A stretch of DNA of 63,558 nt, filler included, from Collodictyon triciliatum (taxonomy: Eukaryota), in the NCBI GenBank assembly GCA_043381765.1. It is 5 parts of 5 records of this genome, joined end to end, with 100 filler letters (N's around TTAATTAATTAA, not from the genome) between each part and the next. Parts side by side here need not be neighbours in the genome. Positions count along the whole stretch, not along the records: positions 1 to 17,305 come from JBHJMP010000973.1; positions 17,406 to 45,923 come from JBHJMP010000974.1; positions 46,024 to 54,808 come from JBHJMP010000992.1; positions 54,909 to 60,826 come from JBHJMP010000993.1; 1 more part is not named here. One strand, given 5' to 3'. The translations under genes were made by a program, and so were the position numbers. This document shows positions 5,401-60,706 of this stretch, piece after piece. The notes beneath the pieces are model-generated. The model saw only the letters and a program-made list of their open reading frames with translations. It was not told the DNA's origin and did not search any database. How positions within the stretch are numbered: the first letter of the stretch is position 1; every line of letters starts with the position of its first letter.

Positions 5401-7312
5401 TGGATAGAAAGCACAACAGATCGTGTCAAAATTATGTTGTATTTCATTATATATTATAGAGCGTTCAGAGGTATTGAAGAAGTACCATGTACAAGGTTTC
5501 CTTTCAATAGAATGATAGTGGGCTCTTATTAAAGTAATAAAGGGAGATGAGAATAATTTTTGATATTTAATGTTTAAATACAATTTGTAGCTTTCATTCC
5601 ACTCCGGCTCTAAGGTATTGTGAATGATGGGTGTGCTGACATGCTGCTCATCAAGCCGAATATCACAGAAGGGATTTGATGTATCTAATCAAATAAAGAC
5701 GATCGAACATTGCATTATGTGTATGTGGACAATATTCATAAATGAATTACATAAATATTTACGATTTTTTCCTTTATTCGATTCAAAGGGGCCATAAATA
5801 TTTATGATAAATGCCATCCTGATTGAGGTATTGCTGATTTGAAGAAAATATAGTATATCTCGTGTATATATATACCGAAATTCTTTGATTGCAAGTTCCG
5901 GGCTGATATGACTGGATTTATAAAATATTTGAATTGGTATTAATGTGTTGCATGTTGGCACAAGACTTTTAGCTTAGCGTTCATAAGCCTCATATTCCAA
6001 TAAATAAATAAAATAGAGACCATAAAATATGTCTTGATGGATTTAAATTGGTAATTAGCGATGAAACCCATTAAATTTTTGTATTTTTACCTTTGACAGC
6101 AAGCTGGCCATTGTAATTTGCTTTTTAAAAAAAAAAAGAAGCTTTTAAATTTTTTTGATGTTGCAATTGAAGTATAATAGTGATGAAGCCATGAAGAATT
6201 TTTTGTTGTTGTTTTTCTTGTTTTTCTTGTTTTTCTTGTTTAAAATAAGGAACTGAATCGAAATATGTACACAACTTTAAAAATACCAACATTAAGAAAG
6301 AGGATTGGGGAAGGGAAAATTATCGGTATCAAAAAAAATAAAAATAAAAAAACAGCATACTTTGGGCCTACCTTTAAACGAGTATGCTTCACTCATCTCT
6401 TCTGGCCAGGAGCTAATTGGTGGGGTATGGTAATCAGGAGAGGGATTAATACCATCAGTCTCGTCGATGTGCTTACGCCGGAACGAATTGATCTGCTCTT
6501 CAGAATACTTTTCTACATTTCCATCATGACTGCCTCCCCATTCAGGCTCCAATCCACTCAATCCTCGAACTCCGGGCTGCAAAGCTGCATTCTGCACAAG
6601 AGTATTCGACTGGGATCTCTTCATAGGAGACGTGAGCAACGTGGATACTTTGCTTGAGATTGCGGAAGGCCGCTCACTATTTGATTCAGAGACACCTTGA
6701 TGATCAACACTTTGGGAGGCAGAAGCATAAGGAGAGTCTCGATTGGCTTTAGCTCGTGTCAGGTTCGAGTCAAGCATAGACGAAGAAAACAATTGGTCGG
6801 ATGAAGACGTCCCAGATAATGTTGCTGGAATCTGAGCAGCTGTGTTGGTTGGGGTGGGTTGGATGCGCTTGCGAAGACCGCTGGTGTTCTGTCCATCAGA
6901 CTCGGCTGGAGGTTCAGGAACATTTGCTTTTGGTAGCCGAGAACTAGTCTTCTCTCCTTCTCAGGCGAGGAGAAAATCAGCATTCGTGTGCACGTGTATT
7001 AGAATTAGAATGCGAGTTCAAGTCGGAATAAAAGAATATTACAAGAAGGCACGATCAATAAAGGAGCTTGGAGGATCTCCTTTAAAAGTTTGAACTGAAT
7101 ACTAAGGGGGGAATGACGGACGCAAGATGTCATGCGCAACACAGAGGCAAAAGAGAAAGAATACCTTGATCTTCTGTGTACAGAGCCTTCCCACCAAAGA
7201 AAAGGCGGTACACGATGAGAAGCCCAGTCACAAGAAGCGTTGTCAGCAGCATGTATGAAAAGCGCAATAACGAGCTGGACTGTCCTGCAATGCCGCTTCC
7301 GTCTTGATCCAT
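2437..7312 (-). CDS. Multi-exon AGC-family Ser/Thr kinase (Ypk1/Gad8/SGK/Akt-like) with N-terminal hydrophobic helix and C2 domain
   Basis: Spliced exons give [30 protein letters not shown] (C2), [71 protein letters not shown] and the hydrophobic motif FAGFSY; splice phases are consistent. Confidence 0.93.
3801..3900 (+). repeat. (AAC/AAG)n microsatellite inside a kinase intron
   Basis: Visible repeat. Confidence 0.95.
5750..5808 (-). mobile_element. 27-nt retro-type micro-insertion (rc GCCCCTTTGAATCGAATAAAGGAAAAA) with 16-bp target-site duplication
   Basis: cataaatatttacgat 5750-5765 / cataaatatttatgat 5793-5808 flank the motif. Confidence 0.8.
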
Positions 7313-7468
7313 AGGAGCGTTGGCTGGGAAGGCTTCGTCTTGTGATCCCACGCAACAATCGAGGATGTCAAGATGTATCAGTGGCGGGGCCGATAAAACA
7401 AACAGGGAGTGGAGGGAGGAGGCGCGACGGAGGATTGTGAGGAGGATAAGAAACTACCAAAGTATATC

Positions 7469-59400: not shown

Positions 59401-60706
59401 GGTGGATATTTCGTCTGGCCACACGAACCTGTTTTTAAAAAATTTTCACTTTGTAATGAAAAATTTTCACCTTGGAAACATCTTCATATCAAAAAAATGA
59501 AATAATCTTGACTTTGAAAAAAAATATTCTTATGTAAATATCTATTCTATGATACTGATATGACATATTGTACACCCTTATTCGATTCAAAGCTTAATGA
59601 TATGACATATTAATTAATTTTGTTCTAAAAAAAGCACAATTTGAATGGAGCAATATGGAAGGAATCAAAGGCAATGAATTGGAGTTTGGAATTCGATACT
59701 ATTCAGCCTATACAATCATCAATTCAAAATTTTACATCTGGGGAGGAATGAATTGCGATGGCACATCTTCTTCAAATGCGACATTCATATACGACTTGGA
59801 TAGAAACCAAAGCAAAATTCGTTTTAATCAAAATGAAAGCATGATTGTTCGAAATCATCCTCAAGGATTTTCTGTGTACCAACAATTCTGTTTTATCGAT
59901 ACATGGATAATCGATAGTCCTATAGAAAGGCAAATATGGTGTCTTTCGGATGGTATCATATTTCATTTCATGAAAAAGAAAAAAAACCTTTTCTTTTCCC
60001 AAGTAACTGATGATAAATCACAATTGAATGAAATCTAAAAGAAAAGTTTTATTTACAGAAAGCTTCGGATGGTATAAGAAAAGCTCTGTTTCAAAAAAAG
60101 TACCAGACAAAGCAAACATTCTTGGATTTCACACAAGCCTAATGACACTTGGTGGCATGGATAAAAATGGAATAATATACAGTGATTTTTGGATAAGTGA
60201 TAGTAAGTAAAAGCATCATCCACTTTCCCTTTATACTTTAAAGAATTACTTTAACAAGAATTTTCCAGATATCAGCTTCTTCTTATTATTTTTTTTTAAA
60301 AAACACAATTCCAAAATATGTAGTTGAATCAGGAAAATGGGAGAGTTTGATAGGACAAAAAAGAGTTGCGCCTCCTATTATCTACTCAAACTCTATTGTC
60401 AAGTCTGGAACAATATTTATGTTTGCAGGAAGTATAAGAAGATTATCAAAACGAACTGCTGCGGTTTACTCTTTGTCTCTTAGTAAGATTTTATTTAATG
60501 CACAATAGATAGAAGAAAAAAGGGGGAAAATTGGATGGTTACAAAAGGAACTCATTTCTTAATTTTTTTTATAGATGACTTCTGGTGTCGGGGATTGAAT
60601 GTCATTAACAACACCATTCGAATCTTGTCTGATGGAAGTCGAGATTTCAAATATTTTCCTGGAACATATTGCAAATGGGAGATCCAAGATACAAACTTTA
60701 TTATTG
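56462..60706 (+). CDS. Secreted/surface Kelch-repeat protein followed by the start of a CUB-like domain (attractin/MEGF8-like); 3' truncated, early exons frameshifted by sequence errors
   Basis: MDIVTAIWKILWVFALVLQANA signal-peptide-like start; repeated IYVYGG, LIFFGG, LYVFGG, IYYFGGQ, VYMFGGE, FYIWGG..W Kelch blades; C..ILSDGSRDFKYFPGTYCKWEI CUB-like motif. Confidence 0.8.
59556..59611 (-). mobile_element. 28-nt micro-insertion (rc TTAAGCTTTGAATCGAATAAGGGTGTAC) with perfect 14-bp TSD
   Basis: tgatatgacatatt at 59556-59569 and 59598-59611. Confidence 0.75.

Follow-up and report, generated by a model that had tools for sequence, protein, structure and literature searches.

Scattered along a 63,558-nt stretch of DNA from the eukaryote Collodictyon triciliatum (assembly GCA_043381765.1; hereafter, the window) is a short motif, TTGAATCGAATAAA, some copies of which sit between direct repeats that differ from site to site. 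What process would insert so small a piece of sequence repeatedly, and always with the same end? We conclude that these micro-insertions are probably retrocopies, drastically truncated on the 5' side, of the 3' terminus of a single non-LTR retrotransposon family, of the long interspersed nuclear element (LINE) class, and that they arose by target-primed reverse transcription (TPRT). LINEs are well known for TPRT, for truncation at the 5' end, and for joining of that end through microhomology. The mechanism is familiar, that of 5'-truncated LINE insertion, and it is the extreme shortness that is unusual.

An initial annotation of this DNA described the motif as recurring on both strands. Allowing up to 2 mismatches, TTGAATCGAATAAA matched the window 20 times, counting both strands. 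The expected mean from 100 dinucleotide-preserving shuffles was 2.30 matches; the shuffle maximum was 7, and 0 of 100 shuffles reached 20. Read in motif orientation, the copies share a core, (C)TTTGAATCGAATAAAGG, that is mostly followed by a run of A. Exact direct repeats of at least 12 bp bracket 5 of the 20 matches (12, 13, 12, 12, and 14 bp), far beyond the chance level given by 20,000 random control sites with the same flank geometry in tandem-repeat-masked sequence, 43 of which had such a repeat (unmasked controls, 3.3% of 5,000 sites). Gapped alignment of the flanks lengthened four of these five clean pairs to 16 to 17 bp at one mismatch. Overall, target duplications span 12 to 17 bp, and six copies have regular ones. 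By eye, about eight direct-repeat pairs of ≥12 bp separated by 8 to 70 nt occur outside obvious repeats, and five of these enclose the motif. The motif enrichment and the locus-specific duplications are confirmed.

Unique sequence in the window amounts to about 55 kb, and our sample from it comprises 5 clean micro-copies, 1 marginal micro-copy, and 3 longer copies; copies are named by motif position. Copy 5773, on the minus strand, has a 31-nt insert (5762-5792; gcccctTTGAATCGAATAAAGG-A6-TCG) between 12-bp repeats at 5750-5761 and 5793-5804, which extend to 16 bp with one mismatch (5746-5804). The 26-nt insert of copy 7482 (7482-7507, plus strand) lies between exact 13-bp repeats (7469-7481 and 7508-7520) and is located 5' to a minus-strand gene. 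Also on the plus strand are copy 30216, with 30 nt (30213-30242; tail GGGTATTTTTTTC, without an A-run) between 12-bp repeats (30201-30212 and 30243-30254; 16 bp with one mismatch, 30197-30254), and copy 33728, with 29 nt (33727-33755; tail GGG-A9-TC) between 12-bp repeats (33715-33726 and 33756-33767; 16 bp with one mismatch from 33711, i.e., 33711-33767). The 28-nt minus-strand insert of copy 59577 (59570-59597), likewise without an A-run, is enclosed by exact 14-bp repeats (59556-59569 and 59598-59611; 17 bp with one mismatch), and a noisier version of it lies at about 47040 in a redundant contig. The marginal copy, 42800 (42778-42830, minus strand), reads ctGTTAATCGAATAAAGGG-A7 and has an imperfect repeat, ATGTATTCTTGC versus ATGTAATCTTAGC (score of 8; control, about 0.04). 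Thus, of seven duplications originally claimed, five are solid and that at 42781-42827 is marginal. The seventh, around a diverged minus-strand motif copy, TTGAATCGTATGAAGG (56814-56864), is not significant (flank score, 5.5; control, about 0.3).

The motif also terminates two longer repeats in the window, which are additional to the copies annotated initially. One, c41, is a plus-strand 5'-truncated LINE copy of about 397 nt (40943-41339) comprising the end of ORF2, the 3' untranslated region (UTR), the motif, and A10 (open reading frame [ORF], 40925-41239; motif, 41314-41327; A10, 41330-41339); no target duplication was found for it. The other, c55 (55216-55439, minus strand), is a 224-nt truncated LINE copy ending in AATAAAGG-A5-GATA, and its locus is also present at 50619-50839 in the redundant contig. 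A 15-bp target duplication with a single mismatch encloses it (55440-55454 and 55201-55215; score, 12.5; control, about 0.002), which indicates that the same machinery made long and micro copies. An older, diverged 3'-end copy of about 50 nt at 1039-1088 (plus strand) has no recognizable duplication.

A 25-letter pattern from the conserved part of the longer repeats retrieved a metagenome contig, L001, that links this 3' end to a coding sequence. Its minus strand contains an ORF in which zf-RVT (PF13966), the zinc-binding domain of reverse transcriptase (RT) C termini, scores 32.4 bits (cut-off, 27.5). This ORF is followed by a frameshifted continuation, a stop, a UTR of ∼95 nt ending in ...CTACACTTTGAATCGAATAAAGG, and A10; the UTR terminus, ...CTTTGAATCGAATAAAGG plus an A-run, is the 3' end of the micro-insertions. 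Identity to L001 is 90% over 420 aligned nt for 40943-41354, 79% for 55438-55220, and 68% for 1039-1126. Together, the copies form a truncation series toward the shared end ...AATAAAGG, with lengths of 26 to 31, about 50, 224, and about 397 nt, and with at least about 1,050 nt in L001. The original proposal that a retroelement leaves only its last 20 to 30 nt is therefore supported by a zf-RVT ORF with the same 3' end, and the TPRT hallmarks that it invoked are present as 12- to 17-bp duplications and as this 5'-truncated series. A search for parents with RT and endonuclease domains, also proposed there, yielded the C-terminal zf-RVT ORF, and RT and endonuclease domains were not seen.

An exhaustive HMMER search with the window ORF fragment found only five related C-terminal fragments, and a protein atlas search found only zf-RVT-bearing clusters. 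Word-indexed searches, whose negatives are weak evidence, gave no longer protein matching the window ORF, the L001 ORF, or the library protein P0003, and a scan of viral contigs for the element gave 0 matches. A scan of prokaryote genomes gave five matches, all of them Flavobacteriia contigs (L002 to L006) with the 21-mer TTTGAATCGAATAAAGGAAAA, which were set aside as coincidental. The 21-mer falls there within a conserved region that appears to encode protein and has no relation to the element of the window.

One library protein, P0004, appears to record a further insertion of the same kind. It has a 14-residue insertion, EREINIFFSFIQFK, before its second EREINIF, which is absent from P0002, L001, the window copy, and the more distant P0003. 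The peptide FFSFI(R/Q)FK is the translated reverse complement of the motif; P0004 has FFSFIQFK, and the window encodes IFSFIRFK and FFFSFIRFK. Judged from these alignments, the P0004 insertion is probably a nested antisense micro-insertion with its duplicated target, for which the four paralogues would represent empty sites.

At the upstream junctions of the micro-copies, the 5' ends of the inserts lie 0 to 7 nt before TTGAATCG. Copies 5773, 7482, and 30216 extend into the LINE UTR bases directly upstream of the motif. In 7482 and 30216, the insert overlaps the end of the upstream duplication by 1 to 2 nt, and 5773, 33728, and 59577 have 1 to 5 junction bases that match neither the LINE UTR nor the duplication. 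Overlaps and extra bases of this size fit the microhomology-like 5' joining suggested in the initial annotation. Its 3' A-tail requires revision. The sequences that follow AATAAAGG(G) in the clean copies are A6-TCG, A6-TTG (after GAG), TATTTTTTTC, A9-TC, and TGTAC; A-runs of 5 to 10 occur in 5773, 7482, 33728, 42800, c41, and c55, usually followed by 2 to 4 non-A bases, so the tail is not a clean posttranscriptional poly(A). ATC-like bases come after the A-run in the majority of copies, among them L001 and the ∼397-nt copy (A10-G..AATC). We suspect that the A-run is internal in the LINE RNA and that a short defined sequence follows it at the terminus.

Target sites are AT rich and have T-runs immediately before the duplication (TTTT|AATG, AATT|AATA, TTTA|TGAA, and others). 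In 5773, 33728, and 30216, the sole mismatch in the 16-bp duplication falls at the fourth base from the 5' end in element orientation, where the downstream copies read ATCG, AATC, and TTTC and the upstream copies read ATCA, AATG, and TTTT. Either the stagger was ∼16 bp and bases beside the tail were recopied with an error, or it was 12 bp and the RNA ends in bases similar to those that immediately precede the nick in the DNA. Under the run-off reading discussed below, which has a small chance, the last bases of the RNA may also help to choose or position the nick: three of the five clean inserts have tails whose terminal bases mimic the target where the duplication is extended to 16 bp, with its one mismatch at the fourth base.

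Observed here are inserts that lie between duplications, a 3' end common to them, copies of graded truncation, an ORF with zf-RVT, and a single nested insertion; the enzyme activities, the order of events, and the reason for the early stop we infer from what is established for LINEs. The endonuclease of the element would make staggered nicks about 12 to 17 bp apart at AT-rich sites. The bottom-strand 3'-OH would then prime cDNA synthesis at the 3' terminus of the LINE RNA (...CTTTGAATCGAATAAAGG, an A-run, and often TC(G)), and synthesis would halt, or the template would be lost, after about 20 to 30 nt. The short cDNA would be end joined across the break through 0 to 2 nt of microhomology or with a few extra bases, and gap filling would generate the target duplication. 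The TPRT outline and the endonuclease consensus are also set out in bioRxiv 10.1101/2024.12.14.628481. RNA-templated patching of staggered breaks, which was initially offered as an alternative, is the same chemistry as abortive TPRT. A terminal hairpin as the stop signal was considered and rejected for want of support: the consensus fold of three UTRs has none other than invariant pairs, and the predicted fold of the L001 UTR does not surpass that of shuffled sequence (z = 0.38).

Several observations weigh against this interpretation. The part of the parent recovered is only the C terminus of ORF2, with L001 (1,157 bp) cut off upstream and lacking the RT core; no full-length copy is present in the window or at any retrieved locus, and neither an RT nor an endonuclease domain was seen. 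As a metagenome contig, L001 may not belong to the organism from which the window came. Empty sites are known at the protein level only, for the nested copy in P0004 and not for the window loci. The tail is no clean poly(A), in that A5 to A10 is followed by TCG, TTG, TC, or GATA, and copies 30216 and 59577 have no A-run. Simple random truncation predicts neither the clustering of 5' ends, within about 7 nt, nor the narrow spread of insert lengths (26 to 31 nt). Finally, the sample set out above is small.

In one alternative, the template would be a short, fixed-length RNA, copied by run-off reverse transcription after a LINE protein binds and protects, or processing excises, roughly the last 28 nt of the LINE RNA; the inserts would then be complete copies of a small template rather than aborted copies of a long one. 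The lengths of the clean inserts (31, 26, 30, 29, and 28 nt) and the scarcity of intermediates (one of about 50 nt, and then 224 and about 397 nt) are as expected of such a template, and longer tails accompany shorter 5' extensions (r of about −0.8, n = 5, by hand calculation), suggesting constant length. That correlation, however, is not significant at n = 5; longer copies with duplications exist; and no structural boundary is evident from the fold of the 3' UTR. We consider a fixed-length template unlikely. Nevertheless, the 26- to 31-nt range and the near-absence of copies of about 50 to 200 nt do not fit uniform truncation and keep the ∼28-nt run-off variant alive. In its broader form, the main genomic output of the LINE would be a discrete ∼28-nt micro-retrocopy, made by run-off on a protein-protected or processed 3'-terminal RNA fragment, a proposal to which we give a small chance.

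The remaining explanations fare less well than abortive TPRT from the LINE RNA itself. Partnerships in which a short interspersed nuclear element (SINE) uses the 3' tail of a LINE are well established, and in a similar manner, host or read-through transcripts ending at micro-elements could be copied in trans via the shared tail, making the family a tail-only, nonautonomous retroposon. The element includes AATAAA, and some 5' bases are not those of the LINE (ttaag before CTTTG in 59577; AAGCC before TTTG in 57567). We find this improbable, however, given that no transduced flank of more than 5 nt was seen, that 5773, 7482, and 30216 match the LINE UTR directly upstream of the motif, and that no transcript ending at a micro-element is evidenced, the RNA contigs having no usable cover or joints at 5750-5804 or 7469-7520. 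The extra bases and microhomology at the junctions also resemble end-joining products, as if preexisting double-strand breaks had been filled, independently of an endonuclease, by a polymerase or RT copying short LINE RNA or DNA. Regular 12- to 17-bp duplications in six copies instead indicate staggered nicks rather than random breaks, and the identical terminal segment at every insertion and the AT-rich target context make such patching very improbable. Lastly, the draft nature of the assembly (concatenated contigs, gaps, and a redundant low-quality contig) raises the question of an adapter, primer, or assembly error. The copies differ by point changes, occur on both strands, and have locus-specific duplications, however, and the same terminus closes the LINE UTR in the independent contig L001 and is translated within the independent library protein P0004. 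These two occurrences effectively rule out the adapter or primer origin that was flagged at the outset, and we regard an artifact of any kind as having a negligible chance.

Four features speak for LINE membership, with RT and endonuclease domains unseen; they include locus-specific duplications of variable length (five exact ones of 12 to 14 bp and the 15-bp one of the 224-nt copy) and a 5'-truncated series with one 3' end. A SINE was rejected: there is no tRNA-, 7SL-, or 5S-like head, and the 26- to 31-nt inserts are colinear with the LINE UTR. ARAGORN found 0 tRNA genes in the window, and there were 0 Rfam family matches. A DNA transposon, a miniature inverted-repeat transposable element, and an excision footprint, for which terminal inverted repeats and a fixed duplication length would be expected, were rejected too: the inserts have no symmetry, running from the motif to the A-run, and duplication length ranges between 12 and 17 bp.

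Truncated L1, RTE, and CR1 copies resemble the copies described here in having a shared 3' end, variable 5' ends, duplications of variable length, AT-rich targets, and microhomology or extra bases at 5' junctions, and in the large excess of truncated over long copies. An average of about 1 kb is typical of truncated L1; in contrast, the commonest product in the window is 26 to 31 nt, with clustered 5' ends, and falls below the usual size for repeat annotation. RTE copies of the 3' end only, flanked by 6- to 12-bp duplications, and a mosquito element with 5 intact versus about 1,940 truncated copies are described or cited in PMC2887409. Our literature searches, which were lexical, covered a single paper collection, and are weak evidence of absence, retrieved no description of the motif or of a LINE family dominated by ∼28-nt inserts.

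The 3' junctions invite a different comparison. In "stringent" LINEs (e.g., L2, CR1, RTE, and R2), the RT recognizes a defined, non-poly(A) 3' end. The family described here is similar in its internal A-run followed mostly by specific bases (TC, TCG, TTG, or GATA), in its extra or variable 3'-junction bases, and in that the minimal mobilized unit is the terminal few tens of nucleotides. It differs in having the canonical AATAAA and no detectable conserved terminal stem-loop. To our knowledge, its dominant product is shorter than any known SINE. PMC4864456 names Platy-1 (∼100 bp) as the shortest primate SINE. Very short SINEs, too, are interspersed retrocopies with duplications that depend on LINE machinery, but the micro-insertions are about a quarter of the Platy-1 length, headless, and colinear with a LINE 3' UTR.

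If the pattern holds genome-wide, there may, at the density of the window, be perhaps tens of thousands of retrotransposition events per genome that are too short for repeat annotation. Retrotransposon activity would then be undercounted, and many small "indels" with flanking repeats would be abortive TPRT events. Each event would also place a canonical poly(A) signal in an intron, UTR, or promoter, where it could truncate or terminate transcripts; if the micro-retrocopy reading is true, the copies, each with its AATAAA, would seed portable polyadenylation signals at roughly one per 5 to 10 kb. The narrow length range and odd 3' junctions could offer a view of first-strand synthesis, of both its initiation and its failure, in the clade to which this LINE belongs. 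Should the pattern not extend across the genome, what we describe is an ordinary truncated-LINE family in a small sample.

Beyond the clean set, the window contains motif copies and inserts of less certain standing. As annotated initially, copies without a duplication are present at about 1064, 45478, and 57567. The first is the ∼50-nt copy described above; the second, CTGAATCGAGTAAAGG (45470-45495, minus strand), has a flanking repeat that is not significant; and the third (57562-57585, plus strand) is an exact motif copy with neither a duplication nor a GG-A-run. A downstream segment, GTGCAATATCTTT, is common to the third and to a diverged copy at 2196-2222 on the minus strand, and both may represent a variant element that extends further at its 3' end. 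The motif copies that share this segment (2177-2216, minus strand, and 57569-57623, plus strand; identities of 22/26 and 16/18) have CGAATAAACGA in place of CGAATAAAGG.

Two other inserts end in AGG and an A-run like the family tail and do not include the full motif. The 15-nt insert ACCTTAGG-A7, between exact 14-bp duplications at 43695-43737 (minus strand), may, from its sequence, be a still shorter copy of the LINE tail or of a related one. The 34-nt insert tcaagctaatttcAAAGG-A8-TTGatttt at 58298-58359 (plus strand), also between exact 14-bp duplications, has a tail that resembles the family tail, and its membership is uncertain. A 54-nt insert at 56126-56209 (also at 49941-50014 in the redundant contig), with exact 15-bp repeats, AATGTGATGTTATTT, and no motif or A-run, may be a different small insertion.

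The structure of the window affects how these copies are counted. Linkers of the form N44-TTAATTAATTAA-N44, with stops in all six frames, lie at 17306-17405, 45924-46023, 54809-54908, and 60827-60926, and there are further gaps elsewhere. The linkers show that the window is a pseudomolecule of joined contigs and not a single locus. The segments 46024-54808 and 54909-60826 are inverted near-duplicates (88% identity; gap columns, 748 versus 20) and, on this alignment, appear to be two versions of one locus, the first noisy and systematically shorter. That first segment has the look of a low-quality or uncollapsed duplicate. The redundancy means that the same loci are counted twice (47040 = 59577, 50815 = 55227, 49405 = 56769, and 50440 = 55636), and the copy density claimed initially, one per ∼6 kb, was inflated by it. 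We rejected the use of the 46- to 60.7-kb "palindrome" as a natural test of insertion age, the arms being separate redundant contigs joined by a linker.

Contigs in the window terminate in microsatellites or homopolymers. Long micro- and minisatellites are unusually abundant, with units of 3 to 12 nt, several of which are common to different contigs (15998-16206, 17208-17305, 30650-30908, 37126-37318, 41968-42094, 44877-45205, and 51322-51691). Neighboring genes on both strands have introns of 66 to 232 nt (GT..AG), confirmed by spliced RNA contigs compared with 2110-15990; a 21-letter RNA joint from 7504 to 14941 in X2 is A rich and was disregarded as unreliable. The window also encodes a polycystin-type channel ORF. 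For its ribosomal protein P0 gene (11833-13684, minus strand), the best relatives of solved structure are uL10/P0 chains of 318 and 317 residues, probably from rabbit and human ribosomes, which score above chains that are probably fungal. In its introns, the channel ORF, and this gene, the window looks animal-like. RNA contig depths at the P0 gene are very high, in the thousands, in all three runs.

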